46,311 bases of DNA from Syntrophomonas sp. (GTDB taxonomy: Bacteria; Bacillota; Syntrophomonadia; Syntrophomonadales; Syntrophomonadaceae): positions 1 through 46,311 of the forward strand of contig JBAYYO010000001.1 of NCBI GenBank assembly GCA_041672985.1. The letters are read 5' to 3'. Every line of letters starts with the position of its first letter. The first letter of the stretch is position 1. Below the pieces are notes generated by a model. The model worked only from the letters and a program-made list of their open reading frames with translations. It made no database searches and was not told the origin of the DNA. Shown piece by piece: positions 3,228 through 43,521 of the stretch. The position numbers and the translations under genes are program-made.

Positions 3228-3245
3228 CTATGGATTAGTTACGTC

Positions 3246-7234: not shown

Positions 7235-7270
7235 CTATCTAATTCCCTCCTTTTACAACAAGCAAGGATA

Positions 7271-7300: not shown

Positions 7301-7325
7301 ACACCATTAGTAGCTTCCTAATTCT

Positions 7326-8279: not shown

Positions 8280-8320
8280 GAATTACCCTCCTTTTTCTAC
8301 ATAAATAAGAATTTATGTGA

Positions 8321-9079: not shown

Positions 9080-9333
9080 TCCTCCTTTTCATCTAATGCT
9101 TTTCTGCTATACGAAATTAGAATTACCGGTATACTATGTCTCTCAACCATCACCCCCAAGATATTTATATGTATTTACTTTTTGCCTACGGCAAATTTAC
9201 CGCCAATTTTGAATAGAATTTACGTTCATAGAAAAAATTTAAGACCAATGATATACTTTCTATATTGAAGTCTAATTTCCTGCTTTTAAGTAACAATAGG
9301 CAAAATTTTTATCAATTCTTTATGAGTCTCCTA

Positions 9334-10617: not shown

Positions 10618-10668
10618 GCTGGGATTCCTCCCCTATTATTTATTCCCTTAACTGGTCTTCTAGAATAC

Positions 10669-11596: not shown

Positions 11597-12589
11597 CTAA
11601 ACATCCCCCCTGGGGTGGTATAAACACCAGCTATCTTCCGCCATATAATCACCATTATAATAATTCGCTCGGGCTCTGCAACCCCCACAGCGGGTCTTAT
11701 AATCACATATCCCGCACTTACCCTTATAATCCATAGTGCGCAGCTTTTGTAAAATCTCATTGTCCCGCCAGATACTATCAAAGGACTTTTCCCTAACATT
11801 GCCGAGTGGCATGTCCAGGTAGGCACAGGGCTGAACATTTCCGGTCGGACTGATAATACAGTAGCTAATCCCTGCCAGGCACCCTTTAGAAAATCTGAGG
11901 GGTATGCCTTTTTTATCGGCTACCCTGATGAACTGGGGAGCACAGGTAGGCTTTATTTCAATTGACACCGTCTTCTGTTTTTCCATCACTCGAGCTATGG
12001 TTTTCTCATATTCAACTACTCGTAAAGCCTCATCCTCAATATTTATAGCCCTCCCGGTGGGCACCAGAAAGAATATGTGATGGGCCATGGCACCGATCTC
12101 AACAGCAAAATCTGTTATAGTTTCCAATTCCTCCACATTCCAATCCATAACCGTGGTATGAATCTGAAAAGGCAAACCTGCTGACTTGAGGTTTTCCATG
12201 CCTTCAACCGTCAGCTGATAAGCGTTATCCAGTTTGCGGAAAGAATTGTTTTTGACAGGGTCAAGGCTGTCAAGACTAACGCCTGCCGCCATAAAACCGG
12301 CTTTTTTCATCCGGCTGGCCACCTCGGGGGTAATAAGGCTCCCGTTGGTTCCCATAACTGCACGCAACCCCTGTCGGGTGGCAAAAGAAGCAAGTTCATA
12401 AATATCCGAGCGCATCAAAGGCTCGCCACCGCTGAAAATCATAATCTGGAAACCAGCCTTTTTAATCTCCTCGATTAACTTCCTGGCTTCGGCGGTAGAA
12501 AGCTCTTCTTCAGATTTAACGCCAGCATCCCTATAACAATGGTCACAAAACATATTACATTGGTTGGTGGTATTCCAGGAAACCAGCAT
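11597..12589 (-). CDS. Radical SAM/SPASM enzyme of the AhbC/AhbD (NirJ-like) heme biosynthesis family
   Basis: 330 aa. The CxxxCxxC motif is at the N-terminus (NQCNMFCDHCY) and a Cys-rich SPASM-like C-terminus follows (CAYLD...CGICDYKTRCGGCRARA). It is embedded in the hem operon next to ahbAB. Confidence 0.72.
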   Translation of the reverse strand: MLVSWNTTNQCNMFCDHCYRDAGVKSEEELSTAEARKLIEEIKKAGFQIMIFSGGEPLMRSDIYELASFATRQGLRAVMGTNGSLITPEVASRMKKAGFMAAGVSLDSLDPVKNNSFRKLDNAYQLTVEGMENLKSAGLPFQIHTTVMDWNVEELETITDFAVEIGAMAHHIFFLVPTGRAINIEDEALRVVEYEKTIARVMEKQKTVSIEIKPTCAPQFIRVADKKGIPLRFSKGCLAGISYCIISPTGNVQPCAYLDMPLGNVREKSFDSIWRDNEILQKLRTMDYKGKCGICDYKTRCGGCRARANYYNGDYMAEDSWCLYHPRGDV

Positions 12590-12638
12590 TTAAAAACCCC
12601 CTCATACTTTACTCATCAAGTCTATTGTCTCCAATAAA

Positions 12639-13616
12639 CTATGGCTGGAGTAGCCTGGCCATATCCTTGGCAGCGTAAGTAATGATCATATCAGCACCGG
12701 CCCTCTTAATAGCGATCAGTATCTCAGTCATTACCGCCTCTTCATCGATCCATCCCTGGGCAGCGGCGGCTTTAACCATGGCATATTCACCACTCACATT
12801 ATAGGCAGCGGTCGGATAAGCAAACTTATCCTTCACCGCCTTCAACACATCCAGATAAGCTAAAGCCGGTTTGACCATAACAATATCTGCACCCTCGGCA
12901 ATATCAAGCTCCACTTCGCGTAAAGCTTCCAAAATGTTGGCCGGATCCATCTGGTAGGTCTTGCGATTGCCAAACTTGGGAGTTGATTCAGCCGCTTCCC
13001 GAAAAGGCCCGTAGAAGGCCGAAGAATATTTGGCCGCATAAGACATTATGGGGATGTGGTTATAGCCCTCACCATCCAGTATATTCCTGATGTACCCAAC
13101 TCTACCATCCATCATATCTGAGGGTGCTACCATATCTGCACCTGCTTCTACATGTGATAAGGCTTCCCAGGCCAACAAATCCAGGCTGGCATCATTATTG
13201 ACACAACCATCAGCTTCTACAATACCACAATGCCCATGATCCATATACTCACATAAACAAACATCGGTTATAACCAATAAATCTGGACAAGTATCCTTTA
13301 TAGCCCGGATGGCCTCCTGCACCACCCCATCCTTATCATAGGCTGTGCTGGCCCGATTGTCTTTGTATTCCGGTATCCCAAAAAGCAACACCGCCGGAAT
13401 ACCCCAAGAATTTATTTCATCTATCTCCGCTGCCAGATTATCCACTGATAGTTGGAATACGCCCGGCATCGATTGCACCGGAGTTCTCTTATCTTTTCCG
13501 AAAGTCACAAAGAGAGGGTAAATGAAATCTTTTACATTAAGATGGGTTTCGCGGACCATGCTGCGAATGTTTTCATTAGCCCTCAGTCTTCTCATTCTAG
13601 TTATTGGAAAACTCAT
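12639..13616 (-). CDS. hemB: Porphobilinogen synthase (delta-aminolevulinate dehydratase), Zn type
   Basis: I chose the start at ATG 13616 (MSFPITRMRRLR...; AAGGGGTGA ribosome-binding site; 16 nt after the cobA/hemD stop) rather than the ORF-track 13766. The Cys-rich Zn site is DVCLCEYMDHGHCG. Confidence 0.9.
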   Translation of the reverse strand: MSFPITRMRRLRANENIRSMVRETHLNVKDFIYPLFVTFGKDKRTPVQSMPGVFQLSVDNLAAEIDEINSWGIPAVLLFGIPEYKDNRASTAYDKDGVVQEAIRAIKDTCPDLLVITDVCLCEYMDHGHCGIVEADGCVNNDASLDLLAWEALSHVEAGADMVAPSDMMDGRVGYIRNILDGEGYNHIPIMSYAAKYSSAFYGPFREAAESTPKFGNRKTYQMDPANILEALREVELDIAEGADIVMVKPALAYLDVLKAVKDKFAYPTAAYNVSGEYAMVKAAAAQGWIDEEAVMTEILIAIKRAGADMIITYAAKDMARLLQP

Positions 13617-13632
13617 TGGATCACCCCTTAAT

Positions 13633-15168
13633 TCAGAATCCAGCATATTTGAGGTCTTGTACAATTGAGTCCAGTAATGCTTCAATAGTATATTGGGTGG
13701 GCATAATATCGACTGTAAATCCATTTTCCTGAGCTGTTCTGGCTGTAATTGGACCGATACAGGCAACCTTTACTTTAGCATTGAAATCCTTGATATTTTC
13801 CGACCCTATTATATTAACAAAATTTTTTACGGTGGAGGAACTGGTAAAAGTTATATAATCCACCTCGCCGTCCCTTATATTTTGCAGACGGGATGGATTG
13901 ACATGGGACGTTGGGGCGGCCTGATAGATGATTACCTCATCAACAACGGCCCCTAACTGCCGCATACTCTCCGGCAGAATCTCACGGGCTCCCCGGGCCC
14001 GGGGTAAAAGTATGCGCTCACCGGGTTTTATCAGGTTCTTTAATTCGGCGATGATCCCCTCAGCACGATACTCTGTAGGCATCAAGTCCACTAATAATCC
14101 CCGCCGGGTAAGCTGGGCTGCAGTTGCCGGACCTATCGCACAGATTCTGATGCCCCGTAATTGCCGAATATCAATCTCCCTCAAGCGGAGTTCTTTAAAA
14201 AATATCTCCACCGCATTAGCACTGGTAAATATTATCCAGGCATAATCATTAAGCTCGGCCAAGGCTTTATAAAGAGCCGTTAAATTATCTTCCTTAACGA
14301 TTTCTATGGACGGAAACTCAATAGCTTCTCCGCCCTCATCTCTTATAAGCTCCAACAAGCCGCTGGCTTGGGCTCTAGCTCTGGTGACTACAATTTTTGC
14401 TCCCCAGAGCGGACCATTTTCCCTCCATTTTAACTCCTGGCGCAAACCCACGGTCTCCCCCACCACAATAATAGCCGGTGGTTTAAAGTTTGCCTGCCGC
14501 ACTTTTTCAACAATATCTGCCAGGGTGCCGGAGATTACGGCCTGATCCGGAAGTGTCCCCCGGCGAATCAAGGCTACCGGTGTGTCCGGGCTTCTTCCAG
14601 CCTCCAGCAGATTACTGACAATAAACTCCAGGTTTTCAACCCCCATCAGAAATACCAGGGTGCCTATCCCAGTGGCTATTTTATCCCATTGAATGGAACT
14701 AACCGCCTTGCCTGGTTTTTCGTGGCCGGTAATTACTGCAAAACTGGAGGTTGCATCTCTATGAGTCACCGGAATCCCTGCATAGGCAGGTACGGCTACG
14801 GCCGACGTTATACCCGGAACTATTTCAAATCTCAAGCCATGCTGGTGAACAAACTGCGCTTCTTCCCCACCCCGCCCAAATACAAAGGGGTCGCCCCCTT
14901 TTAAACGGGCCACGATTTTGCCTTCCCGGGCTTTTTGCACCAGCAGTTTATTAATTTCATCCTGGGGCAGGGCGTGATTGCTGGAAGCTTTACCGACATA
15001 AATAAACTCCGCATCTTGAGGTGCATAATCAAGTATATCCTGACCAATCAAGCGATCATAAATAACAACATCTGCAGTTTCCAGCACTTTCTTGCCTTTG
15101 ATCGTAAATAAACCGGGGTCTCCAGGCCCCGCCCCAATCAGATAAACAATCCCTTGCTTTGGCATCAA
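13633..15168 (-). CDS. cobA: Fused uroporphyrinogen-III C-methyltransferase / uroporphyrinogen-III synthase
   Basis: 511 aa. The N-terminal ~250 aa are a SUMT domain (VYLIGAGPGDPGL...), and the C-terminal ~250 aa are HemD-like. Confidence 0.88.
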   Translation of the reverse strand: MMPKQGIVYLIGAGPGDPGLFTIKGKKVLETADVVIYDRLIGQDILDYAPQDAEFIYVGKASSNHALPQDEINKLLVQKAREGKIVARLKGGDPFVFGRGGEEAQFVHQHGLRFEIVPGITSAVAVPAYAGIPVTHRDATSSFAVITGHEKPGKAVSSIQWDKIATGIGTLVFLMGVENLEFIVSNLLEAGRSPDTPVALIRRGTLPDQAVISGTLADIVEKVRQANFKPPAIIVVGETVGLRQELKWRENGPLWGAKIVVTRARAQASGLLELIRDEGGEAIEFPSIEIVKEDNLTALYKALAELNDYAWIIFTSANAVEIFFKELRLREIDIRQLRGIRICAIGPATAAQLTRRGLLVDLMPTEYRAEGIIAELKNLIKPGERILLPRARGAREILPESMRQLGAVVDEVIIYQAAPTSHVNPSRLQNIRDGEVDYITFTSSSTVKNFVNIIGSENIKDFNAKVKVACIGPITARTAQENGFTVDIMPTQYTIEALLDSIVQDLKYAGF

Positions 15169-16104
15169 TTATTCTCCTAAACGCTTTATTTCTTCCAGAA
15201 TTCTATGTGCCCCCCTGCTTAAAAGGTTCTGGGCCAAGATTCTGCCAATTTCCTCAGCCTGATCCAAAGGCCCCGAAAGACTACCTTTAATCAATTGCTG
15301 CCCGTCCATAGAGGCCACCAAGCCTTCTAAATTGAGTACGTCGTCTTTAATGTGAGCCAGGGAAGCGATAGGCACCTGACATCCTCCCTCTAGCTCCCGC
15401 AGGAGAGCTCTTTCGGATTGGGTGGCAATATCAGTAGGCAGGTCATTTATAAGCCCCATGATCTTTAGGGTCTCATAATCATCCTCCCGCACCTCGATCG
15501 CAATAGCTCCTTGCCCTACTGCAGGCATAATTGCCTCCGTGCTTATCATTTCTGTAATCTGCCCGGTATAGTTCAGGCGTTTTACTCCTGCGTAAGCGAG
15601 AATAATCCCATCCAAATCCTGGGTTACCATCTTTTTGATACGGGTTTCCACATTCCCCCGCAGGTCGGTTGTACGAATATCGGGTCGCAACGCTTTTAGT
15701 TGTGCTATCCGGCGCAGACTTGAAGTTCCGACTAATCCGTTAGGGGGCAAGGTGGTCAGGGTATACCCTTTATGGGATATTAGGACATCCCGGGGGTTTT
15801 CGCGTTTTAAAACCGCTCCCAAAGTAAGACCAGGAGCTAAAAATGAGGGTAAATCCTTCATGCTGTGTACGGCTAGATCGACCTCGCCGGCCAGCAGTGC
15901 ATTCTCTATTTCTCTGGTGAAAAGCCCTTTATCCCCAATTTTGGATAAAGCCACATCTAATATTTTATCACCCTTGGTTTTAATAATATTTATTACAATA
16001 TTTAGATCAGGCGCTTTACCTTTAATTTCCCTGGCAACACAATCGGCCTGCCATAGAGCCAGTGCACTACCCCTTGTTCCCAGCCTTAATTGTTTCATAA
16101 ACAT
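15169..16104 (-). CDS. hemC: Hydroxymethylbilane synthase (porphobilinogen deaminase)
   Basis: LRLGTRGSALALWQA... The start could be ATG 16104 or ATG 16098. It overlaps the 3' end of hemA. Confidence 0.9.
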   Translation of the reverse strand: MFMKQLRLGTRGSALALWQADCVAREIKGKAPDLNIVINIIKTKGDKILDVALSKIGDKGLFTREIENALLAGEVDLAVHSMKDLPSFLAPGLTLGAVLKRENPRDVLISHKGYTLTTLPPNGLVGTSSLRRIAQLKALRPDIRTTDLRGNVETRIKKMVTQDLDGIILAYAGVKRLNYTGQITEMISTEAIMPAVGQGAIAIEVREDDYETLKIMGLINDLPTDIATQSERALLRELEGGCQVPIASLAHIKDDVLNLEGLVASMDGQQLIKGSLSGPLDQAEEIGRILAQNLLSRGAHRILEEIKRLGE

Positions 16105-17380
16105 CCTGCTCCTCGCCCGGTAATTGCAAACTAAACAGCTTTTTCACTACTTCAGCATAGAGATGTCCCTGGTTGCTTACGGCCATCTCTTTCAAGTTTA
16201 TCACTGGATAATGCAGCAATTGATTGATAATGGAATGGGCCAGTGCAGTGATAATCTCTTTTTCGTGGTCAGAAACTTCACCCAACCTGTTAAAGGTTTT
16301 TTTAAGTTCATTCTGTTTAATGATTTCCCCATGCTTTTTGAGCGCTGATATGACAGGCACTACGTACAGACTGGCCATCCATTCGTTGAATTCCAGCAAT
16401 TGATCAGCAATAATATCATTCGCTTTGATGGCCGCTTTGTGCCGGGCAGTAAAGTTTGAATTAATTACACCCTGCAAATCATCAATATCATACAGATAAA
16501 CTCCTTCAATGGTGTTGAGCACTGGCTCTATGTCTCGAGGTACAGCGATGTCAATCAGTATTATTTTCCGCCCCTGACGAGCCAGCAGGGCTTCACGGCA
16601 ATTATCTTCCCGAATCACATAATGCCTGGCAGCTGTACAACTGATGACAATATCAGCATTCTTCAATTCTTCCGCCAGTACATCAAATCGTACTGCCCGA
16701 CCGTTTAAATACTGTGCCATCTCCACCGCTTTTTCATAAGAACGATTGGAAACCATAACCGAATGCACACCATTTAGCAGCAAATACTTGGTGGTTAGGT
16801 CGCCTACTTCCCCTGCTCCCACCACCAGGACAGTTTTATCTTGCAAAGAACCCAGTATCTTTTTGGCTAGTTCCACCGCTGCATAACTGACCGAAACAGG
16901 ATGTTGGTCTATAGCCGTCTCGGTGCGAACCTTTTTACCCACATATAATGCCTTCTGAAACAGGGAATTCAACACTCCATCGGCGGCCTTAAGTTCCTGG
17001 GCCTTCTGGTATGCCTCCTTGACCTGCCCCAATACCTGGGTTTCTCCTACTATCATAGAATCTAGTCCGGATGATACTCTAAAAAGATGTTCAATAGCCT
17101 CATAACAATCCGGCTGATAAACGTATCTGTCTAATTCCTCAGCTGATAAGCCAGAATAGGATAGCAAAAATGATTTCAAGTAATTCTGACCTGCTTCAAT
17201 GTCCCGGGCAGTAGCATACAACTCGGTACGATTGCAGGTGTTAAGTATAACCAGACCTTCAATATCTTCATTTTTCAGCTTCGCGTAAGCATGCTCCAAC
17301 TGAGAAGGAGCAAAAGCAAATTTCTCACGGATATCAACCGGCGCTGTCTGATGATTTATTCCCGTAAGCAAGACATACAT
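16067..17380 (-). CDS. hemA: Glutamyl-tRNA reductase
   Basis: 437 aa with the active-site region ILNTCNRTELY and a NADPH-binding GAGEVG motif. Confidence 0.92.
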   Translation of the reverse strand: MYVLLTGINHQTAPVDIREKFAFAPSQLEHAYAKLKNEDIEGLVILNTCNRTELYATARDIEAGQNYLKSFLLSYSGLSAEELDRYVYQPDCYEAIEHLFRVSSGLDSMIVGETQVLGQVKEAYQKAQELKAADGVLNSLFQKALYVGKKVRTETAIDQHPVSVSYAAVELAKKILGSLQDKTVLVVGAGEVGDLTTKYLLLNGVHSVMVSNRSYEKAVEMAQYLNGRAVRFDVLAEELKNADIVISCTAARHYVIREDNCREALLARQGRKIILIDIAVPRDIEPVLNTIEGVYLYDIDDLQGVINSNFTARHKAAIKANDIIADQLLEFNEWMASLYVVPVISALKKHGEIIKQNELKKTFNRLGEVSDHEKEIITALAHSIINQLLHYPVINLKEMAVSNQGHLYAEVVKKLFSLQLPGEEQDVYETIKAGNKG

Positions 17381-32420: not shown

Positions 32421-33083
32421 CTACAGCCATTCAGGCTTTAAATATAAATTAATTACCTTTAATAATTCTTTATAGTCGGGATAAAGTTCCGTGTAGAATC
32501 TTCTTTCTACAGTCAGATACCTAATCGGTATATTCAGGGCTGTACTAAAACCCGCAACCTTTTCGTGCCCGCCCCGAATAACAGCAGTGCTCGTCTCCTG
32601 CAGTAAATTAGGATTGCTTACAATACCGGTGAACTTGATATGGGCCGCCCTCTCCAGTTGATCCCTCAATAGAATCACACTTTCCAAATCCTGAGCAAAC
32701 GGTCGATAAGGATTCAATACCAGTAAAAAATCATAAGTAGGGCGAGCTAGTATGTATTTACTCAAATAACCTAGCACCAAAGATCCAACTTCATCGCCAG
32801 CCACATCGATAACCATATTATTTTCCTGCCTGATCAAGCCAATTATTTCAGAAGGTATGGCGGGCACATCTCCGAAGGACAAATCCCCGGCCGGGGCTAC
32901 CAGCCTGATACCGGCCAGCCTGAGTGCATCATAAAGATCTCTGGAAGCAAAATAGGGGTTAACCAAATCCAAATCTGCCAGAATCACATCTGAAGAAATT
33001 GCTGCCATCTGCATGGCATGATTTAGAGCGAGTTCCGATTTGCCACTGCCAAATCCACCCGCGTAAATAGTCATATTTGCCAA
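32421..33083 (-). CDS. Uncharacterised P-loop NTPase (SIMIBI/MinD-ParA-CooC-like), first gene of the OFOR operon
   Basis: 220 aa. It has a Walker A (YAGGFGSGKSE), a switch-like ADLDLVNP and a Walker B-like MVIDVAGDE. The gap to the delta subunit is 24 nt. TTG start. Confidence 0.65.
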   Translation of the reverse strand: MANMTIYAGGFGSGKSELALNHAMQMAAISSDVILADLDLVNPYFASRDLYDALRLAGIRLVAPAGDLSFGDVPAIPSEIIGLIRQENNMVIDVAGDEVGSLVLGYLSKYILARPTYDFLLVLNPYRPFAQDLESVILLRDQLERAAHIKFTGIVSNPNLLQETSTAVIRGGHEKVAGFSTALNIPIRYLTVERRFYTELYPDYKELLKVINLYLKPEWL

Positions 33084-33165
33084 CTAATTACCCTTTCTTA
33101 GCAGATCTTATTGAGTAATAATATTAGATTAAGATAAGACGAAAAGCAATAAATAATTTTATATT

Positions 33166-33190
33166 AAAAAATGGCTCTTTAAAGCCATTT
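33166..33190 (-). terminator. Intrinsic terminator of the 145-aa gene
   Basis: Stem (aa)atggct / agccat(tt), followed on the minus strand by a T-run. Confidence 0.6.
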
Positions 33191-33260
33191 CAATCTGATA
33201 AACAAAATCTACACTGCCAAGAATTTATGCATTTATAAATTGGAGGTAAATTGGGGACGG

Positions 33261-33698
33261 CTATTTCCAAGTATCAACCTTGCGGAAAATATACTCTTTA
33301 TATTCTGATAGTTCCAGGCTTATCCTGAACAGCAGTTTCTCCATATCACTTTTGGAAAGCACTAACTCTTCGGGTTCGATAATTTCTACGGTTCTAAATT
33401 CTTCCTTCACTATAAATTTTATGGCATCTTCAATGCTATCCGCATAAAAGGTAATCACTACCGGTGCATAAGCCATCTTCTTACCGGTGATATCATCAAT
33501 TAGAGAATAAATATCCTGGCTCATATCTATGTCTTCGATGCTAATCCCTTGTACCGGCACATTTCTCATCATAGTAACCTTATGCTGTCGGGCATCGTCG
33601 GCAAGTTGCTCCAAATTCTTGTTCCCAAAAAGTTTGCCCGATTTAGCTTTACCGACATAATCAAAACGCAGCTTAATTTTTATTGCAGGCAAAATCAT
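33261..33698 (-). CDS. Hypothetical protein, 145 aa, acidic, family not recognised
   Basis: It has a GGAG ribosome-binding site, a possible promoter of its own (TAATAT) and its own terminator. There is no transmembrane segment and no obvious motif. Confidence 0.55.
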   Translation of the reverse strand: MILPAIKIKLRFDYVGKAKSGKLFGNKNLEQLADDARQHKVTMMRNVPVQGISIEDIDMSQDIYSLIDDITGKKMAYAPVVITFYADSIEDAIKFIVKEEFRTVEIIEPEELVLSKSDMEKLLFRISLELSEYKEYIFRKVDTWK

Positions 33699-34672: not shown

Positions 34673-35521
34673 CTATGATGAAATACTCATTTTAACGCCC
34701 ATATCTACTGGCCGGCCAAAATAAACAGCTGAGGTTACTAGGGCATCAACCCCGGTCTGGGCAAATGTTTGCACATTGCTTTCATTAATCCCGCCCGCGG
34801 CGAGTATGGTGATCCCGGCATCAATCCCCCTGATTATTTCCACCGCCTTTCTTAATTCCAGCGGGGATATTTTGTCAAACTGTACACCATCTGCCCCCGC
34901 CTGGCATACTCTGACCGCATCATCGATTGTTTTTACCTCTATAACAACCTTCTTTTCCCGGTTGCGTAATTTTATATCCTTAAGCCTCTCCAGCAGGCCA
35001 TCCAAGCCTCCTAAAAATTCCAGGTGCTGTTCGAAAATCAGAATGGTTTCCGATAATCCCAGCCTGTGCGGCAGCCCTCCCCCGGCTATAACCGCTTTGG
35101 TACTCATTTCTTTGGTACCAGGAAAGACCTTGCGGGTGGCAGTGATTTCAATGTTCGGATTGACTTCTCGGGCTTTCTCCACCATCCTCCTGGTGCGGGT
35201 AGCTATCCCTGAAACATGCTCCAAAACATTCAAAGATACTCTCCAGGCCATATGGAGGTCCTCTGCCTTACCCTCCGCTCCTATTATGATGCTTTGTGGT
35301 TTGACCGCTGTTCCTGAGGCCAAATATTCCAAAGGGGTAATATTAAGCTTGTGAAATATCTTGAGCACCTCTTCAGTGCCGCATATTACCGCTTCTTCCC
35401 GGCAGATATACTCCATCTTCCCTTTTTGCCCGGCCATATTCAAAACCAGCGAGGTCAGGTCTATATAGGGTATATCTTCCTTAATAAATCTTTCAATCGT
35501 TGCATCCGCAATAAACATCAT
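34673..35521 (-). CDS. modD: ModD-like protein (QPRTase-fold paralog, putative molybdenum utilisation protein)
   Basis: Quinolinate-phosphoribosyltransferase fold. It has the ModD-type 'LSETILIFEQH' where NadC has 'D.vLIKDNH'. I prefer ATG 35521 (GAAGGAGG 8 nt upstream); the ORF-track TTG at 35539 lies inside that ribosome-binding site. Confidence 0.72.
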   Translation of the reverse strand: MMFIADATIERFIKEDIPYIDLTSLVLNMAGQKGKMEYICREEAVICGTEEVLKIFHKLNITPLEYLASGTAVKPQSIIIGAEGKAEDLHMAWRVSLNVLEHVSGIATRTRRMVEKAREVNPNIEITATRKVFPGTKEMSTKAVIAGGGLPHRLGLSETILIFEQHLEFLGGLDGLLERLKDIKLRNREKKVVIEVKTIDDAVRVCQAGADGVQFDKISPLELRKAVEIIRGIDAGITILAAGGINESNVQTFAQTGVDALVTSAVYFGRPVDMGVKMSISS

Positions 35522-35676
35522 AAATTTAGCCTCCTTCAATTCTCGTTTCTAAATCGGACTGTCAGTTTGATAAACGCAATCTTACAATAACAGCATAATA
35601 CCATAATTTATCCCCATATGTTTTTACATAACGGCAGGATTTAATGCAATAGTCAACGAATAACTATAAAAATATA

Positions 35677-35775
35677 TTTATCTTCGAGTTTGGCTGCCTG
35701 TGGTTGCAGCTATGGCAACCAAACCGATTGGGTTCAAGCGGAAACGATTGGGCCTCCCGTTGCGGAAAGAAGATA
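35677..35775 (+). promoter_or_regulatory. Candidate riboswitch aptamer, Moco (molybdenum/tungsten cofactor) RNA motif-like
   Basis: P1 is ttatcttc/gaagatag. After 5' CUUCGAG comes the helix gtttgg/ccaaac enclosing CUAUGG. A hairpin at 35733-35750 is capped by a GAAA tetraloop. The 3' segment is GGGCCUCCC-GUUG-CGGAAAG. These match my recollection of the Moco motif (CCGAG, GCCUCCC, GGAAAGG, GNRA plus receptor). This has not been verified with a covariance model. Confidence 0.5.
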
Positions 35776-35798
35776 GGCAGTGGTTACTTATCTCCGTG

Positions 35799-35827
35799 GC
35801 GATTTGTTTTTATACAAATCGTTTTTT
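35799..35827 (+). terminator. Intrinsic terminator forming the expression platform of the leader
   Basis: A perfect 8-bp stem cgatttgt/acaaatcg with a 6-nt loop, followed by T7. It lies 113 nt upstream of the next start codon. Confidence 0.7.
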
Positions 35828-35939
35828 TGTACCCGAGTGGGCACAGGTAAAAGAAGCCTATCTGGAAACCGAAAACTTGTTTGCCTGGATGTTGGTGCTT
35901 TGAACCAGACATTTGGGCTAGAAAGGATTGGATTATATC

Positions 35940-36749
35940 ATGACAGATGACTTGAGCATTGTTCTTAAACCCATTGGAGTAGTTAGATCCGAAATGATTG
36001 ATCCCAATGACGTCCCTATTCCCGGACAACCGTCCCGGGTAGAAATTTTTCCGCAATATAGTCAGGCGCTACACCGAATTGAGGAAAACTCACATCTATG
36101 GCTCTTGTTGTGGTTTCACAAATCAGATCGCAATTGCCTAGTTACGGTACCCCGCCGGGTAAATCCGAATCTGCCCGAATATGGGGTCTTCGGACTAAGA
36201 TCACCCAATCGTCCTAATCCCATCGCCTTATCTTTAGTGCGTTTGAATTCAGTGGCAGGCAATATCCTCCAGGTGGGTGGTCTGGACGCAATTGATGGGA
36301 CACCCGTGCTGGATATAAAATCTTACTACGAGCAAGACATAATATTTTCACCCCAAACGCCTTATATCCGGGCTCATAATCCTGTTATGCGTCGCAATAT
36401 ATTCTTAAAGCAAGCCCTTTCCCACCATCAGGAAGAATGTCCGGATCTATTTATGGCTATTCGTATGGCCCTGGCAGCCGATGAATATATGGGGCATATT
36501 AATCGGCCGGATTTAAAACTCACGATAACCGGTTCGGCTTGTCTCGCCGATACCTTACAGGGGTTGAGTCGGGCCAGACTGGCTAACCCTCCACGATTTG
36601 CCTTTCAGGAGACAGCTGCACTGCCGGTCAGTGTTTGGACGGATAGCAGACACAGCCTGAAGATAGAAGCGCGCTGCCACCTTAACCAGATAACATTCAC
36701 CGAGCTTGCCGATGAGGATCTTTTCAGTATTAATTTTAAGGAATTATAG
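35940..36749 (+). CDS. Fusion protein: N-terminal TsaA/TrmO-like (UPF0066) domain plus C-terminal FmdE/FwdE-like domain
   Basis: The N-terminal part reads VLKPIGVVRSE...GVFGLRSPNRPNPIALSLVRL...GLDAIDGTPVLDIKSYY, the TsaA/YaeB signature. The C-terminal ~130 aa begin FLKQALSHHQEECPDLFMAIRMALAA, resembling the FmdE 'fHGHlCPGlaiGyRaa' motif. I prefer the ATG at 35940 over the TTG at 35928. Confidence 0.68.
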   Translation: MTDDLSIVLKPIGVVRSEMIDPNDVPIPGQPSRVEIFPQYSQALHRIEENSHLWLLLWFHKSDRNCLVTVPRRVNPNLPEYGVFGLRSPNRPNPIALSLVRLNSVAGNILQVGGLDAIDGTPVLDIKSYYEQDIIFSPQTPYIRAHNPVMRRNIFLKQALSHHQEECPDLFMAIRMALAADEYMGHINRPDLKLTITGSACLADTLQGLSRARLANPPRFAFQETAALPVSVWTDSRHSLKIEARCHLNQITFTELADEDLFSINFKEL

Positions 36750-36940
36750 GTTCGAAAGGAGTCGGTCCAGAATCTCCATAAAATAAATGAGGCCTTGCTT
36801 AGATACTGTGGGACATAATAATTACCAACTCCAGGCTTGAAGCCTGTCTTCTCTACCGGGCTTGCAGATATACTCGCACAACTGGTATTATTTAATTGAT
36901 TTTGAGCGAAATATATCTGAATAGAAGCAGGGAGGAAACC

Positions 36941-37513
36941 ATGCATAACAAACCTATAGACAAGGAGAAGATCGAAGCCGCCTTCCGACAAATTCTGGAA
37001 GCCCTGGGGGAAGACCCGGAACGGGAAGGATTGGCCCAAACTCCCAAGAGAGTAGCCCGGATGTATGAAGAAATCTTCTCCGGTATGAACAGCGAACCAA
37101 AGAATTATCTGGATGTGTCTTTTACCGAATATCATGATGAGCTAATCCTGGTAAAAGATATTCCTATGTATTCTATGTGTGAACATCATTTTCTGCCCTT
37201 TTACGGTTGGGCCCACGTTGCCTATATACCCAAAGGCGGTAAGGTAGTAGGAATAAGCAAACTGGCCCGAGTAGTCGAATCCTATGCAAGACGACCGCAG
37301 CTGCAAGAACGACTTACTTCCCAAATTGCGGATTGTATCTTTACGGAGTTAAAACCGATGGGGGTAGGAGTGGTAATTCAAGCTGAGCATATGTGTATGA
37401 CTATGCGGGGAGTCAAGAAACCGGGTTCTTTAACTGTAACATCGGCAGTTAGAGGCATTTTTGAAACCCGCCCTGAGACCCGAGCCGAACTATTCTCACT
37501 GATCCAGAGATAA
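36941..37513 (+). CDS. folE: GTP cyclohydrolase I (Zn-dependent FolE1)
   Basis: 190 aa from ATG 36941 (GGGAGGA 4 nt upstream). It contains [10 protein letters not shown] and [11 protein letters not shown]. Confidence 0.92.
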
Positions 37514-37763: not shown

Positions 37764-39110
37764 TTAAACTATTTTGTTGCTTCTTACCCAGATTTTCATC
37801 TGTTGAGCTTCCTTGATCAGCTCATCGCGAAGATCAGGATGGGCTATATTGATCAATGCTTCCGCCCTTTGCCAGGTCGATTTGGCTTTGAGCATAGCTA
37901 TACCATACTCGGTGATTACATAGAAATTTATGCTCCGGGGTACGGTTACTATTGCTCCCGGGGTTAACGTCGGCCGAATTCTTGACTTTAGATTGCCATT
38001 CTTATCCTTGTAAGTGGCAGTCAGACATATCAAGCCTTTGCCGCCTTTGGAATCATAAGATCCGGAGATAAAGTCCAGCTGCCCGCCGGTTCCGGAGATA
38101 TGCCTGATCCCTGACGATTCTGAGGCCACCTGCCCGTACAGGTCAACCTCGATAGCATTATTGATGCCGATAACGTTGTCATTTTGGCTTATTACACAGG
38201 GATGATTGGTGTATTCTACCGGATAACTGGCACAGCAGGGATTACCATCCAGGAAGTTGTACAATTTATTGGTGCCCATGGCAAAGGTATATGCCATTTT
38301 GCGTTTATCCAGTTGTTTACGGAGGCCAGTAATGCGTCCAGCTTCATACATATCAACGAACGAGTCCACCAGCATCTCAGTGTGTACCCCCAGATCCTTA
38401 AGATCAGATTGAGCAATCATGGCACCGACGGCATTGGGCATGGCGCCAATGCCTAATTGCAAACAGGCTCCATCTTCGATCTCTTCCATAACCAGGGCCG
38501 CAATCTGCTTATCAATATCGGAAATAGGCAGTTCGGGCAGTTGAATCATGGGTTGGTTATCACCCTCAACGATATAGTCCACCTCGGAAATGTGAATAGA
38601 TTCCCTATTCCCTCCCAGACAAATGGGCACCGTTTCATTTACTTCAATGATGACTGTTTTAGCGGCATCGCAAACACTGGGGGTAAAAGAATTTGAGGTT
38701 CCGAAATTGAAGAAACCATGTTTATCCATAGAGGATACCTTAATCAGAGCCACATCTGTTTCTACATAACCCCGGGCATAGAAGCTGGGACCCTCATGGT
38801 AAGTCAAGGGTATATAATTACAGAGATCTTTATCATGCAACTTGCGGCTGGCGCCACTCATATGCCAGTCATTGTAAATAAAATGCTTTCTCTCTGGATC
38901 AGCCAGAACCGCTTTCGGCGGGAAGGGGCAAGTAGTAGTCCGAATATTAACATTCTCCAGTTCATCAACCCTTCTGGCCAGGGCCGCATCCAGGTAAGCA
39001 GAGGTCATGACAAACTCACCGTAGTGTACCAGGTCACCTGATTTGACTACTTTCATGGCTTCATCAACGGGGGTTAGTTTACGTTGGTATTCTGCACTAT
39101 AATCAGCCAA
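37764..39110 (-). CDS. Acyl-CoA:acetate CoA-transferase of the acetyl-CoA hydrolase/transferase family (butyryl-CoA or 4-hydroxybutyrate CoA-transferase-like)
   Basis: 448 aa. The family signature GIGAMPNAV... and the catalytic-Glu region EVDLYGQVASES...GTGGQLDF are present. Confidence 0.86.
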   Translation of the reverse strand: MADYSAEYQRKLTPVDEAMKVVKSGDLVHYGEFVMTSAYLDAALARRVDELENVNIRTTTCPFPPKAVLADPERKHFIYNDWHMSGASRKLHDKDLCNYIPLTYHEGPSFYARGYVETDVALIKVSSMDKHGFFNFGTSNSFTPSVCDAAKTVIIEVNETVPICLGGNRESIHISEVDYIVEGDNQPMIQLPELPISDIDKQIAALVMEEIEDGACLQLGIGAMPNAVGAMIAQSDLKDLGVHTEMLVDSFVDMYEAGRITGLRKQLDKRKMAYTFAMGTNKLYNFLDGNPCCASYPVEYTNHPCVISQNDNVIGINNAIEVDLYGQVASESSGIRHISGTGGQLDFISGSYDSKGGKGLICLTATYKDKNGNLKSRIRPTLTPGAIVTVPRSINFYVITEYGIAMLKAKSTWQRAEALINIAHPDLRDELIKEAQQMKIWVRSNKIV

Positions 39111-39219
39111 TTAGATCCCTCCTCATCTAATAACATACCGTTAATTCTATTGCAAAGAACCAATATAACTTGGTGGCCAGATCAATCAAGTTTTGTTTCC
39201 GCCACCAGGTCTTTTCTCT

Positions 39220-40362
39220 CTAGCCTCTAAGCAGATCGCCTGCTATAACAAGTCTCTGCACTTCGCCGGTTCCTTCATAAATCTGGAATATCTTGGCATC
39301 CCGATAATACTTCTCAACTGGATAATCTTTGGTATAACCATAGCCGCCAAATACCTGTACAGCTTCGGTAGCACAGAATACTGCGGTGTCACCGGCAAAG
39401 GCTTTCGCCAGGGAAGCAGCCTTGCTGAACCGCGGCACGTCCATATCCTGTAAAGAAGATGCTTCCAAATAGAGCAGGCGGGAAGCCTCAATTCTCATAG
39501 CCATATCCGCCAGTTTGAATTGAATGGCCTGGAAGCTACAAATAGGTTTGCCGAACTGGGTGCGTAGTTTAGAGTATTCCAATGAAGCATCCAGACTAGC
39601 CTGGGCAACACCGGTGGCCATTGCGGCAATACTGGCCCGGGAAATATCCAAAGTCTTCATAATAATATAGAATCCCTTGCCTTCACTGCCCAGCAGGTTT
39701 TTGGCCGGAACCCGTACATCCTCAAATATTACTTCCGTAGTGTTGGAGGTTCTAATCCCCAGTTTGTCCTCGGTTTTGCCCACGGTTATACCCGGAGTAT
39801 CACGATCAATTATGAAAGCACACATACCCTTGGTACCCATTTTCTTGTCCAGGGTTGCCAGGAGGGTATATACTCCAGCGGTTCCACCATTACTGATAAA
39901 CTGTTTAACTCCGTTAATTACATATTCATCGCCCACCTTTACACATCTGGTGGAAAGGCCACCCGCGTCGGAACCTGCCCCGGGTTCAGTTAAACAGAAG
40001 GCTGCCAATTGGCCATCGTTTAACTTGCCATAAAAATCCTTCTTCTGCTCGTGATTGGCGGCAATCAGTACCGGGTCTGCCGCCAACAGGGTGCTGGCTA
40101 CCATAACAGTACCTATCCCGGCGTCGCCCCAGCATATTTCTTCGGCGACAATGTTTTGCGCTGCATGATCCAGCCCCGGTCCGCCATATTCAGCTGGAAC
40201 ACCTATGGTCATAAGTCCTACTTCATGCATCTTCTTGATGCAATCTTCGGGATAAATATGCTTATTATCCCATTCACTGGCAAAAGGAGCTATTTCATTG
40301 GCGGCAAAATCATGAGCCATTTTTTTCATCATTTCTTGTTCTTCACTTAAACGAAAATCCAT
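39220..40362 (-). CDS. Short/medium-chain acyl-CoA dehydrogenase (butyryl-CoA dehydrogenase-like)
   Basis: 380 aa from ATG 40362 (GGGGAGGA ribosome-binding site). MDFRLSEEQEMM... with C-terminal QIYEGTGEVQRLVIA. Confidence 0.92.
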   Translation of the reverse strand: MDFRLSEEQEMMKKMAHDFAANEIAPFASEWDNKHIYPEDCIKKMHEVGLMTIGVPAEYGGPGLDHAAQNIVAEEICWGDAGIGTVMVASTLLAADPVLIAANHEQKKDFYGKLNDGQLAAFCLTEPGAGSDAGGLSTRCVKVGDEYVINGVKQFISNGGTAGVYTLLATLDKKMGTKGMCAFIIDRDTPGITVGKTEDKLGIRTSNTTEVIFEDVRVPAKNLLGSEGKGFYIIMKTLDISRASIAAMATGVAQASLDASLEYSKLRTQFGKPICSFQAIQFKLADMAMRIEASRLLYLEASSLQDMDVPRFSKAASLAKAFAGDTAVFCATEAVQVFGGYGYTKDYPVEKYYRDAKIFQIYEGTGEVQRLVIAGDLLRG

Positions 40363-40422
40363 TATAATTCCTCCCCTTCGTTTATAGTTTAATTGACTGA
40401 CAATGGGTTTCATAAGAAGGGC

Positions 40423-41634
40423 TTATATATCTCTGGTCCAGAGTGAAGCCATCGCTGGCCCACCACCAACACAAAGGGAGGCTCCACCTACGGTCTTGCC
40501 CTGTTTCTCCAATTCATAATACAGGGATACAATGATCCGTAAGGCGGTGCATCCTACCGGGTGACCGAGACCAATACCGGAGCCATTAACATTAACCTTG
40601 CTCAGATCCATTTCGATGCCGAAATCTTCTTTAATCATCCTGCCGACACCCAGGAACTGGGCGGCAAAGGCTTCATTGATCTCCCAGTATTCTACGTCTT
40701 CATACTTCATGCCGGCTTCCTTTAGACATTTGGGAATTGCCACTGCCGGACCTAATCCCATAACTTCGGGAGCTACCCCTTCGGCACAGATGTTTATCAG
40801 TTTCATCAAGGGTTTTAAACCTAATTCCAGCGCTTTGGCTTTGGACATTACGATTACAGCAGCTGCCGCGTCATTAATACCGGAGGCATTGGCGGCTGTT
40901 ACGACCCCACCCTTTTTAAAGGCGGACGGCAGCTTGGACATGGCTTCAATGTTGGCATCAGGAATCATATGCTCATCTTTTTCATATAACTTGACGCCTT
41001 TTCTGGATTTGAGTTCCACCGGGACTATTTCCCGCTGGAAGGTTCCGTCTTCAGTAGCCCGGGTAGCACGTTGATGGCTTAGAAGTGCCAGTTGATCGCA
41101 TTCTTCACGAGTAATACCGTATTTTTCCGCAATATTCTCAGCAGTCAGGCCCATGTGCCCGGGAACCAGTTTATCGAATAGTCCGTCATGAATCATGGCA
41201 TCCTCCACGGAACCGGCGTTCATCCGATAACCCATTCTGGCTTTGGGAAGCATATAGGGGGCATTGGTCATACTCTCTACCCCTATAACCAGACCAATAT
41301 CGGTTTTGCCCAGTTGAATACGATTAATGGCTATTTCCAGAGCCCGCATCCCGGAGGCACAGTTCTGGTTTACGTTGCAGGCATTGCTGGTAACCGGGAG
41401 CCCGAGCGCCATACCGACCTGGCGAGCAGGAAGGGATCCCTGCATATGGGGATATACTTGACCCATTACGATTTCATCAATGGTATCCGCTGCTATTCCT
41501 GCTCTCTTGATGGCTTCTTTGCCCACCCCTATGGCCAAATCTAAAGCTTGTACGTCTTTAAGGCTGCCCATAAACCTTGCTATTGGTGTTCTGCAGGCAC
41601 TAACGATTACAACATCTTGTATTTCTTTCATCAT
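40423..41634 (-). CDS. Acetyl-CoA C-acetyltransferase (thiolase II)
   Basis: The active-site contexts are NQNCASGMRA, GHPVGCTALR and LCVGGG. Confidence 0.93.
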   Translation of the reverse strand: MMKEIQDVVIVSACRTPIARFMGSLKDVQALDLAIGVGKEAIKRAGIAADTIDEIVMGQVYPHMQGSLPARQVGMALGLPVTSNACNVNQNCASGMRALEIAINRIQLGKTDIGLVIGVESMTNAPYMLPKARMGYRMNAGSVEDAMIHDGLFDKLVPGHMGLTAENIAEKYGITREECDQLALLSHQRATRATEDGTFQREIVPVELKSRKGVKLYEKDEHMIPDANIEAMSKLPSAFKKGGVVTAANASGINDAAAAVIVMSKAKALELGLKPLMKLINICAEGVAPEVMGLGPAVAIPKCLKEAGMKYEDVEYWEINEAFAAQFLGVGRMIKEDFGIEMDLSKVNVNGSGIGLGHPVGCTALRIIVSLYYELEKQGKTVGGASLCVGGGPAMASLWTRDI

Positions 41635-41655
41635 ATTGCTGTCCTCCTAAATATA

Positions 41656-42438
41656 TTATTTATTCTGAAATACCGGTTTTCTCTTTTCCAGGAAAGCTCC
41701 CATACCTTCTTTCTGATCGAAGGTGGAGGAGCACATACCGAACATATCCGATTCTATACCCATGGCCGTATCCAGGTCGGCCTGCATTCCCTTACCAATT
41801 GCATATTTAGCGTATCCCACCGCCAGGGGTGCTTTTTTAGCAATCTTAGCGGCCATCTTCCTAGCTTCTTCCATTAATTGATCAGCAGGATATACATGGT
41901 TGACAAGTCCCAAGCGATAAGCTTCATCAGCCTTGATATTATCTGCTGTATAAGTAAGCTCTTTGGCCCTTCCTTCACCTATTAAACGGGGTAGACGCTG
42001 GGTGCCGCCGAAGCCGGGGATAACCCCCAGACCCACTTCGGGTTGGGCAAACAAGGCATTGTCTGCCGCCAGCCTAATATCACAAGCCATAGCCAACTCG
42101 CACCCGCCCCCCAGGGCAAACCCTTTAATAGCTGCTATAACAGGTTTCTCCATTATTTCCAGCATGCGCATGGTTTTCTCGCCATAGTCGGAGAATTCAC
42201 GTGCTTCCACACCGGATAAGGGCTGCATGTAGGCGATGTCAGCACCGGCCACGAATGCCTTGTCGCCGCTGCCAGTGATAATCATCACCCTTATAGCCTC
42301 ATCGGCGCTCACATCTTCTATAGCACTTCTAATCTCGGTTAATGTATCTTTATTCAGGGCATTTAAAGCTTTGGGACGGTTGATATAAAGGATCGCTAAA
42401 TAATCCTCTTTTTCAAGAATAATGTTTTCGTAGGCCAT
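41656..42438 (-). CDS. crt: Enoyl-CoA hydratase (crotonase)
   Basis: 260 aa of crotonase-fold sequence (FVAGADIAYM, GFALGGGCELAMACD). Confidence 0.9.
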   Translation of the reverse strand: MAYENIILEKEDYLAILYINRPKALNALNKDTLTEIRSAIEDVSADEAIRVMIITGSGDKAFVAGADIAYMQPLSGVEAREFSDYGEKTMRMLEIMEKPVIAAIKGFALGGGCELAMACDIRLAADNALFAQPEVGLGVIPGFGGTQRLPRLIGEGRAKELTYTADNIKADEAYRLGLVNHVYPADQLMEEARKMAAKIAKKAPLAVGYAKYAIGKGMQADLDTAMGIESDMFGMCSSTFDQKEGMGAFLEKRKPVFQNK

Positions 42439-42490
42439 GATTTTTCCCCCTCTCGTCAGATTGGCCTCTGATTCATTTATCTATCTGATA

Positions 42491-43339
42491 TCAATATTCA
42501 TAGAAACCCTTTTTGGTTTTCATCCCCAGCCAGCCAGCCCGGACATACTGTTTTAACAGTCCGGAGGGACGGTATTTGGGGTCTCCGGTTTCGTCATACA
42601 AGGTATTCATAACGGCCAGAGCAATGTCACCGCCTACCAGATCGCAGAGGGTAAGCGGTCCCATCGGCCATCCAGCCCCAAATTTCATAGCTGTATCAAT
42701 ATCTTCAGCGGTAGCCAGGCCTTCATAAAGGATGGCACAGCCTTCATTGATGGTAGGTACCAGGATACGGTTGACAACAAACCCCGGTCCTTCTTTAACC
42801 TTTACTGGTTTCTTGCCGATTTCTATGGAAAGATCAACCACCGTTTGTACGGTTTCGGCGGAGGTTTGCAGGGCAGGAATAACTTCAACCAATTTCATTA
42901 CATTGGCCGGGTTGAAGAAATGCATGCCTACGACTTTGTCTGGTCTTTTGGTTATGGCTGCTATTTCGGTAATGGAAAGAGATGATGTATTAGTGGCGAT
43001 TATTACTTCAGGTGCCAGCAAAGCGTCCAGTTTCGTGTAGACATCTTTTTTGACATCCATATTTTCGAAAACACCCTCGACTATGAAATCGACGTCTTTT
43101 AGGTCCTCGAATTTATCGGTTCCAAAAATATTTCCCAGTACAGCATCCTTGGTACCGGCAGCGGCTTTGCCTTTCTCTTCAGCCCTAGCCAGATTTTTGC
43201 CAATTGCATTTATGGCTCTATCGATAAATTCTTTTTTGATATCATAAAGTACTACCTTCTTGCCCGCAGCTGCCAGAGCCCAAGCGATACCCTGTCCCAT
43301 TGTTCCTGCACCCAACATCCCAATTTTGTTAATGGCCAT
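42491..43339 (-). CDS. hbd: 3-hydroxybutyryl-CoA dehydrogenase
   Basis: MAINKIGMLGAGTMGQGIA... I prefer ATG 43339 (GAGGAGG ribosome-binding site) over the ORF-track 43357. Confidence 0.92.
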   Translation of the reverse strand: MAINKIGMLGAGTMGQGIAWALAAAGKKVVLYDIKKEFIDRAINAIGKNLARAEEKGKAAAGTKDAVLGNIFGTDKFEDLKDVDFIVEGVFENMDVKKDVYTKLDALLAPEVIIATNTSSLSITEIAAITKRPDKVVGMHFFNPANVMKLVEVIPALQTSAETVQTVVDLSIEIGKKPVKVKEGPGFVVNRILVPTINEGCAILYEGLATAEDIDTAMKFGAGWPMGPLTLCDLVGGDIALAVMNTLYDETGDPKYRPSGLLKQYVRAGWLGMKTKKGFYEY

Positions 43340-43521
43340 TACTGTATACCTCCTCATCCTAAAATTATATCTAAAACAGCACCCAGAAAAATCTTCCCCC
43401 CTCTCATTTAATTTAGTATCTAAAACTAATCAAAATAGTAAAATATCCCTCTATATTGATATATAGTCAAAGCAAAGAATATGCCAAATATTCTAAATTA
43501 ATCCATCCATAGGCGTTAAAA

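Follow-up and report, generated by a model that had tools for sequence, protein, structure and literature searches.

A P3-less riboswitch of the Moco family precedes a TsaA-FmdE fusion gene in Syntrophomonas, probably as part of molybdenum and tungsten homeostasis

We analyzed a locus at positions 34673-37513 of a 46,311-nucleotide stretch of DNA from Syntrophomonas sp. (GenBank assembly GCA_041672985.1, contig JBAYYO010000001.1), hereafter the window, in which a riboswitch of the molybdenum cofactor (Moco) family lies ahead of a gene for a 269-aa protein, composed of a TsaA/TrmO-like barrel, of the type binding S-adenosylmethionine (SAM or AdoMet), and of a domain resembling FmdE. The interpretation we favor, with moderate confidence, is that a transcription-terminating OFF riboswitch, of the variant proposed to sense the tungsten-pterin cofactor, controls the fusion gene, and that its product belongs to a regulon for Mo/W acquisition and cofactor maturation, and is not TrmO. 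The link of the fusion family to Mo/W homeostasis is in itself well supported, because both the riboswitch and Mo/W-type neighboring genes recur across related loci. An earlier note, based on the letters of this DNA, had described the locus as a ModD-type gene on the minus strand, a leader containing a Moco-riboswitch-like aptamer and a terminator, the TsaA/TrmO-FmdE fusion gene and, 191 nt beyond it, folE. All four calls, and the measured 191-nt gap, are real, while the interpretation built upon them is, as a whole, partly supported. The features of the locus are the following:

34673..35539, minus strand: ModD, a QPRTase-like paralogue (TIGR01334, QRPTase_N/QRPTase_C)
35540..35669, no strand assigned: putative divergent promoter region between ModD and the leader (consensus-level promoter matches)
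35670..35788, plus strand: Moco/Tuco aptamer RF01055, P3-less, with P1, P2, P4 and P5 (Rfam)
35758..35800, plus strand: alternative hairpin, candidate anti-terminator (ViennaRNA folds)
35798..35830, plus strand: intrinsic terminator (sequence reading, terminator scan)
35940..36350, plus strand: N-terminal part of the fusion protein, TsaA/TrmO_N class VIII SAM-binding beta-barrel, residues ~1-137 (PF01980, TIGR00104)
36360..36749, plus strand: C-terminal part of the fusion protein, FmdE-NTD-like (N-terminal domain of FmdE) alpha+beta domain, residues ~141-269 plus stop (hhalign, Foldseek, motif)
36750..36940, plus strand: intergenic region between the fusion gene and folE (weak hairpin at 36832-36846)
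36941..37513, plus strand: FolE, GTP cyclohydrolase I, 190 aa from its ATG (PF01227, TIGR00063)

The gene boundaries agree with the public gene calls on 13 contigs encoding an identical fusion protein. The fusion gene runs from an ATG at 35940 to its stop at 36749, which fits the 269 aa originally reported; the 388-nt spacer reported with it corresponds instead to a TTG at 35928, and becomes 400 nt when the ATG is used.

The riboswitch is an ordinary member of Rfam family RF01055, which matches positions 35670-35788 of the plus strand over its full length (model positions 1-135) with 68.0 bits (gathering score 36, E 2e-14), so that the covariance-model check suggested for the leader gave a positive outcome. 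No other Rfam family exceeds its gathering score across the whole 46-kb window. A custom covariance model, R1, built from six Rfam-confirmed aptamers, assigns the window aptamer 123.8 bits and recovers 33 aptamers in all, one in the window and 32 spread over 22 of 79 related loci; every one of those re-checked with Rfam exceeds the gathering score. The 79 loci, here designated by L numbers, come from species-representative genomes and were collected by means of a profile of 20 fusion homologues; counts out of 80 include the window, context was scored within 6 kb and, since many contigs are short, neighbor counts are lower bounds. Among the 33 aptamers, all near fusion genes, 89% of the alignment cells are paired, versus 37-45% when the partners are slid, and compensatory changes on both sides are found in 22 of the 33 helix pairs of P1, P2, P4 and P5, figures biased towards structure, as the alignment was fitted to the model.

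The P3 positions of the model are deleted in the window aptamer, where P2 and P4 are connected by the linker ACCGAUUGGG; for comparison, P3-containing matches are found in L051, L059 and L058. Being devoid of P3, the window aptamer is assigned to the class for which the tungsten cofactor (Tuco) has been put forward as ligand, a proposal derived from the correlation of P3-less aptamers with tungsten-cofactor genes (Regulski et al. 2008, PMC2408646). Of the two ligands contemplated in the earlier note, we thus propose, by analogy, the tungsten cofactor. In the annotated part of the window, no tungsten-specific genes (tupABC, AOR-type enzymes) were seen; TupA-like genes are present in related loci. 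In E. coli, the Moco RNA turns gene expression off in a manner dependent on Moco synthesis, and S. wolfei carries at least 15 copies of the riboswitch (PMC2408646). All five riboswitches of E. limosum are P3-less, and both of those bearing a terminator precede operons up-regulated at tungsten limitation (PMC11725836).

Two side observations concern the aptamers. In four of the four contigs shown, public gene callers place a 67-aa open reading frame (ORF; MVAAMATKPIGFKRKRL...) at 35700-35903 of the plus strand, over aptamer and terminator; this is almost certainly a false gene call on structured RNA. At L040, three tandem P3-less aptamers (376-857, plus strand) precede a TupA-like/ModB/ATPase operon, recalling the triple arrangement described in S. 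wolfei by Regulski et al., and a fourth one, on the opposite strand (5649-5780, minus), adjoins the fusion gene.

The terminator hairpin (35798-35823), also found by a terminator scan, starts ten bases past the aptamer, and features a 10-bp stem (GGCGAUUUGU/ACAAAUCGUU) with a 6-nt loop, followed by a U7 tract extending to 35830; the sequence, as read, is GGCGATTTGT-TTTTAT-ACAAATCGTT and then TTTTTTT. A comparable hairpin with a T-tract lies behind 24 of the 33 aptamers. We infer that this terminator is the expression platform of a transcription-terminating OFF switch, which may work as follows. When the cofactor is plentiful, the aptamer (35670-35788) would keep P1 and P5 closed, and the hairpin with its U7 tract would stop transcription ahead of 35940. 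When it is scarce, the 3' part of the aptamer would refold into the hairpin at 35758-35800, eroding the base of the terminator, and RNA polymerase would go on to transcribe the fusion gene and possibly also folE. In nascent and constrained ViennaRNA folds, the 35758-35800 hairpin is built from P5 together with the 3' strand of P1, and recruits the GGC at the base of the terminator stem; we infer from it only a candidate anti-terminator state, the best alternative among the leader folds, in which no strong anti-terminator was found. A long-range pairing of 35770-35778 with 35857-35864, featured by the minimum free energy structure of the whole leader, was discarded, since it lies 3' of the terminator and is therefore irrelevant during transcription. 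On the plus strand, a promoter-like match (CTGTCA-18-TACAAT) is found at 35559-35588; promoter matches within 35540-35669 are at consensus level, and their number is not above the shuffled expectation.

The association of riboswitch and fusion gene extends well beyond the window. In 18 related loci (L002, L003, L004, L007, L009, L010, L012, L014, L016, L017, L018, L019, L021, L028, L039, L051, L059 and L069; for L007, L009 and L010, gene order was established manually from tblastn coordinates) the riboswitch is upstream of the fusion gene, with only co-directional genes between the two, and the aptamer immediately precedes the fusion gene in the window, L014, L017, L019, L039 and L069. Loci with an upstream riboswitch belong to Syntrophomonadaceae, Desulfoscipio and other Desulfotomaculaceae, Desulfosporosinus, Sporotomaculum and a Clostridiaceae metagenome-assembled genome (MAG); in Pelotomaculum loci a riboswitch is found nearby, but not co-directionally upstream of the fusion gene. 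At least six operon layouts are found behind the riboswitch:

fusion, with or without ModD
ATPase, SsuA/NMT1-like binding protein, permease, fusion, FmdE
TupA-like or Oxidored_molyb-like gene, Peripla_BP_2, FecCD, ATPase, fusion
TupA-like, ModB, ATPase, DUF364-like, ModA-like, fusion
FecCD, ATPase, three copies of one unknown protein, XdhC, fusion
in Desulfosporosinus, behind a P3-containing riboswitch: methyltransferase (present or not), FmdE, DUF364, fusion

Over the 80 loci, the most frequent neighbors are FecCD/PBP2 importers (24 loci), followed by the riboswitch (23), stand-alone FmdE (15), DUF364 (14), radical SAM proteins (13), Mod/Tup components (12), Oxidored_molyb-like genes (8), XdhC (6) and ModD (5). 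One or more Mo/W-specific markers occur in 35 loci, and 32 have no informative context. The neighborhood survey that had been proposed thus ties the fusion family strongly to Mo/W genes and to the riboswitch, the latter in 22 of the 79 loci other than the window. No specific NCBIfam names were obtained for the neighbor clusters c5, c12 and c38.

Some neighborhoods deserve a separate description. In Sporomusa and relatives (L061, L065, L066, L067, L076), the fusion gene lies inside a conserved 12-gene cluster, in the order Peripla_BP_2, radical SAM, an unknown 381-aa protein, FmdE, FecCD, fusion, ExbB, ExbD, TonB, ATPase and TonB-dependent receptor; this cluster resembles a system importing a chelated metal, and a search within 6 kb revealed no riboswitch. 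In Desulfosporosinus nitroreducens (L059), two tandem cobalamin riboswitches of 110 bits each (9804-9989 and 10269-10455, plus strand) are located directly 3' of the Peripla_BP_2/FecCD/ATPase genes that come after the fusion gene.

The N-terminal half of the fusion protein matches TrmO_N (PF01980, E 1e-30) and scores 122.9 bits on TIGR00104, against a cutoff of 93.25; its nearest relative in the PDB is the short archaeal AF_0241 (2nv4, E 3e-25). TrmO is defined by four AdoMet contacts (AF0241 Gln22, Arg82, Asp111 and Lys122), and its C-terminal DPRxxY domain is required for the formation of m6t6A (Kimura et al. 2014, PMC4132733). Three of these contacts (Arg87, Asp116 and Lys127) are invariant in the fusion family; the Gln position, which is Pro28 here, is variable. 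DPRxxY was found in 0 of the 76 collected fusion ORFs. As the fusion is devoid of the DPRxxY domain, methylation of tRNA to m6t6A is unlikely, and the usual annotation as TrmO, of which this domain is a defining feature, is probably an over-call. The earlier suggestion of a Mo/W role, and not of tRNA methylation, is in agreement both with this absence and with the Mo/W genes and riboswitches surrounding the family.

It might be argued that the protein is nonetheless a SAM-dependent RNA methyltransferase of the TrmO/TsaA type, in which the FmdE-like domain replaces the RNA-binding domain, the riboswitch reflecting some coupling or mere coincidence. The TIGR00104 score and the invariant Arg, Asp and Lys would agree with this explanation, as would the presence, in the window, L005, L006 and L008, of neighboring genes for a pseudouridine synthase and for FolE, a queuosine/folate precursor enzyme. 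We consider it very improbable, however: DPRxxY is missing throughout the family, the Gln contact is not conserved, and the best structural relative, AF_0241, comes from an archaeal group where m6t6A has never been found. Moreover, the gene is embedded in transporter operons and occurs as several paralogues per genome (L005 and L009, L001 and L017, L031 and L039, each pair from one MAG).

The C-terminal half is an FmdE N-terminal-type domain, as indicated by profile, fold and motif. Taken alone, it remains below the Pfam threshold for FmdE (18.4 bits versus 22.9, E 0.0023), and a PDB sequence search with it returned weak matches only; however, PF02663 is matched at E <= 0.01 by 14 of 20 close homologues (best 1.3e-7). 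The profile of the domain aligns with that of the stand-alone FmdE proteins encoded beside fusion genes with a probability of 91.7% (hhalign, E 7.8e-7). An AlphaFold2 (AF2) model of the isolated domain has a pLDDT of 88.5 and, in a Foldseek search, its first match is the FmdE-like 2glz (E 1.8e-5, probability 1.00, TM 0.64-0.67), with 3d00 in fifth position (TM 0.58); the full-length AF2 model, in which the N-terminal half has a pLDDT of 30-70, was left out of the fold search.

Six residues (His163, Glu165, Cys167, Cys201, Asp204 and Gln207) are invariant in 20 homologues, and their spacing matches that of the FmdE metal ligands His15/His17/Cys19/Cys55 and of the Asp58/Gln61 motif (Axelrod et al. 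2010, PMC2954224), Glu165 replacing His17; distant members feature HHGExC, nearer still to the FHGHxC of FmdE. His163/Glu165/Cys167/Cys201, together with Asp204 and Gln207, form a predicted metal site. With the domain profile as query, 1.84 billion representative proteins yielded only 66 clusters at 50% identity, nearly all composed of proteins of ~250-290 aa with the domain at ~138-265; this FmdE-like subtype is therefore essentially confined to the fusion. The combination of FmdE-NTD and UPF0066 had been listed in 2010, when most FmdE genes were also reported to adjoin metal-ion transporters (PMC2954224): the domain fusion is thus not new as an architecture, although its function is indeed undescribed. 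Just 13 of 208 FmdE family members are co-transcribed with formylmethanofuran dehydrogenase subunits, and neither the window nor any of the 79 loci showed fmd/fwd genes. As a side observation, L072 carries two fusion paralogues 2 kb apart (2905-3696 and 5953-6801), the second of which has lost the Cys ligands (HHGADS..., RELAD) and may be a degenerate, non-metal-binding copy.

The gene context suggests that the fusion protein would be an accessory factor of the cytoplasm, working at a stage after metal import and before W or Mo is inserted into the pterin or apo-enzymes. Its His/Glu/Cys/Cys site would hold the metal, a thiolated or oxo form of it, or the cofactor, while SAM or another adenosyl ligand would occupy the barrel; ModD would be a recurrent partner in the same process, and FolE a neighbor by synteny only.

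Several points weigh against this interpretation. Mo/W, transporter or FmdE context is missing, within 6 kb, from the above-mentioned 32 loci, including L005, L006 and L008, which share the flanking synteny of the window. Among partner transporters, the commonest are of the FecCD/BtuF-like class, generally linked to iron, haem or B12, and equivalent operons of E. limosum were taken by the authors of that study as iron uptake (PMC11725836). FmdE crystal structures held Zn or Ni, not Mo or W. The TrmO equivalog TIGR00104 is passed and three of the four AdoMet contacts are intact, so that, to judge from these residues, methyltransferase activity on some substrate, even RNA, may be retained. As for the riboswitch, the alternative hairpin strips just 3 bp from the terminator stem, and the tungsten-cofactor ligand of P3-less aptamers is a correlative assignment (PMC2408646).

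The metals bound by FmdE and the class of the partner transporters make the supply of another metal the main rival explanation. The fusion protein would in this case serve, as a cytoplasmic partner of FecCD/BtuF-type importers, the provision of Fe, Ni, Co or Zn, co-regulated with the demand for tungsten enzymes; it would be a metal chaperone or a chelate-release factor, and the riboswitch would merely couple supply to cofactor status. FecCD/Peripla_BP_2 importers are, as seen, the commonest neighbors (24 of 80), those of Sporomusa are accompanied by TonB, ExbBD and a TonB-dependent receptor, Zn/Ni occupies the homologous site in FmdE structures, and E. limosum has Tuco riboswitches ahead of two operons with an iron ABC transporter annotation, interpreted in that study as iron supply (PMC11725836). 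Nevertheless, fusion genes are also found in operons with ModABC/TupABC, XdhC, ModD and Oxidored_molyb-like genes, as well as right behind the riboswitch, with no transporter, in the window, L014, L017, L019 and L039. An OFF switch closing iron import when the tungsten cofactor is abundant would, in addition, ill fit the iron demand of holo-enzymes, and the substrate of FecCD-type importers could itself be a W/Mo complex. On balance, we regard this explanation as unlikely, and retain a role of the fusion in Mo/W acquisition and cofactor maturation.

A more specific proposal can be advanced tentatively, as one possibility that we hold to be less than probable: the fusion, together with stand-alone FmdE, DUF364 and ModD, may constitute a missing step of W/Mo use in anaerobes. 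In one variant, imported W or Mo, in the form of a thiometalate or a chelate entering via FecCD-type or TonB-dependent systems, may undergo SAM/adenosyl-dependent capture at the His/Glu/Cys/Cys site and be handed to the pterin or to apo-enzymes. Were such a step real, FmdE/FwdE would receive its long-sought function, and the "iron" ABC operons behind Tuco riboswitches would be importers of W/Mo complexes.

The ModD gene (34673-35539, minus strand) contains QRPTase_N and QRPTase_C domains and scores 231.1 bits on the modD model TIGR01334, well above the cutoff of 178.85; on the nadC model the same ORF reaches 197.1 bits, 1.3 under the cutoff of 198.4, and HMM scores would thus barely separate ModD from true QPRTases in this lineage. 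The public start is the ATG at 35521, giving 282 aa. No modABC genes were found in the region of the window around ModD. In L039 and L069 the order is riboswitch, fusion, ModD, with ModD co-directional; in L051 and L059 it is ModA, ModD, riboswitch, FmdE, DUF364, fusion, with a methyltransferase gene ahead of FmdE in L051. The ModD proteins of these four loci score 238-252 bits on TIGR01334, and their co-directional position makes ModD a recurrent partner of the fusion family. In the window, in contrast, ModD is transcribed away from the riboswitch, and hence lies outside its control; its inclusion in the module, as first proposed, is thus justified by the other loci and not by the regulation of the window copy. 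At L083 (GCA_001577815.1, LSQX01267847.1; 99.4-99.5% identical) ~455-464 bp are missing from the middle of ModD: positions 4594-4800 correspond to 34924-35378 of the window, with a 9-nt overlap at the deletion junction and a remnant ORF of 68 aa. ModD may be dispensable in that strain, or the deletion may be an assembly artefact.

The last gene of the locus, folE (36941-37513), matches PF01227 (E 4e-78) and TIGR00063 (250 bits, cutoff 181.6). The earlier note had placed it within the Mo/W module, on the argument that GTP is the common precursor of molybdopterin (MPT) and of FolE-derived pterins. This argument is weak, as Moco synthesis from GTP runs through MoaA/MoaC, not FolE. The fusion-FolE pair is found in only four of the 79 related loci: L005, L006 and L008, all from Syntrophomonadaceae, where the synteny of pseudouridine synthase, fusion and FolE is maintained with neither riboswitch nor ModD, and L068, where FolE is on the opposite strand. 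As the syntenic loci feature the pair without a riboswitch, FolE is probably a neighbor by lineage-specific synteny, not a functional part of the module, and its membership was rejected.

Read-through from the riboswitch-controlled transcript into folE possibly occurs. The intergenic region (36750-36940) holds a weak 6-bp hairpin (36832-36846) with a poor T-tract, as identified by the terminator scan, folds no better than its shuffles (z -0.18) and, when aligned with the spacers of L005, L006 and L008, is conserved near the ribosome-binding site only. One could then imagine riboswitch, fusion and folE as a single pterin operon, in which an ample supply of the W/Mo cofactor represses FolE along with the fusion, whose target is a FolE-derived pterin. 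The lack of a convincing terminator between the two genes agrees with this idea, as does the conservation of the pair in four Syntrophomonadaceae loci, window included; furthermore, FmdE-NTD is elsewhere fused to the MPT-binding domain PF00994 (PMC2954224). The idea appears improbable, however, given that the pair is missing from 75 of the 79 other loci, that the three syntenic loci have neither riboswitch nor ModD, that the 191-nt gap has room for a promoter of folE itself and that FolE, by established pathway knowledge, is off the Moco/Tuco biosynthetic route.

Other regions of the window were noted in passing. Two ORFs of 220 and 145 aa, with no Pfam match, are located at 32421-33698 (minus strand); the shorter one is syntenic in L005, L006 and L008, where it lies beside the pseudouridine synthase gene. 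The region 5105-17380 (minus strand) encodes a 709-aa membrane Fe-S oxidoreductase, with CCG domains and a NarI-like domain, followed by a tetrapyrrole cluster (HemL-type class III aminotransferase, ALAD, TP_methylase-HemD fusion and GlutR). This content is typical of Syntrophomonas-like butyrate oxidisers, and agrees with the beta-oxidation genes found at 37764-43357.

The riboswitch family, the FmdE-NTD + UPF0066 architecture and the proximity of FmdE to transporters were already known; what is new is the link of the fusion to the riboswitch. In a literature search with most subscription journals and RegPrecise outside its scope, we found no report tying a Moco/Tuco riboswitch to TsaA, TrmO, FmdE or DUF364, nor any on the function of the fusion or on the biochemistry of ModD; COG1720, yaeB and folE are not mentioned in the supplement of Regulski 2008. 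For some thirty years, FmdE/FwdE and ModD have been associated with Mo/W operons as families lacking an assigned function, and the present locus provides a testable lead on both, in a minimal arrangement where a tungsten-class riboswitch stands straight before a single gene. Since the selection, traffic and insertion of tungsten in anaerobes are poorly understood, the fusion family represents a concrete candidate for a step of W/Mo handling. In anaerobic Firmicutes and Deltaproteobacteria, "TrmO" is probably a misnomer in hundreds of annotations, and the question arises of the real cargo of the FecCD-type "iron" transporters controlled by Tuco riboswitches.

Comparison with known systems helps to define the locus. 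The riboswitch shares with the P3-less Tuco subclass, exemplified by the E. limosum fetABC1 and focA leaders (PMC11725836), the P1/P2/P4/P5 organization without P3 and the intrinsic terminator; it comes from a Syntrophomonas-type genome, a lineage with at least 15 copies, and the same OFF logic is expected. Its target is different, being a TsaA-FmdE fusion gene that encodes no transporter, no MPT-biosynthesis protein and no W/Mo enzyme. With TrmO/TsaA/YaeB, the fusion has in common the PF01980 beta-barrel, the RPNP loop, the DGTPVLDIK motif and the Arg/Asp/Lys AdoMet contacts, but an FmdE-like domain takes the place of the DPRxxY domain and the Gln contact is lost; the closest solved relative of the barrel is of the short archaeal AF_0241 type. 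With FmdE/FwdE (PF02663; 2glz, 2gvi, 3d00), it shares the alpha+beta fold of the NTD, the location beside metal-ion transporter genes and a motif, HH(G/Q)ExC...CLADxxQG, similar to FHGHxC...CxxDxxQ. In contrast to those proteins, it is below the Pfam cutoff, features an invariant Glu in place of the second His, is devoid of the C-terminal zinc ribbon and of nearby formylmethanofuran dehydrogenase genes, and represents a subtype essentially restricted to the fusion. Finally, ModD resembles its counterparts in modABCD operons in passing the same model, and the Desulfosporosinus copies (L051, L059) lie directly behind ModA; the window copy is instead paired with a riboswitch-fusion unit, divergently here and co-directionally in L039 and L069.

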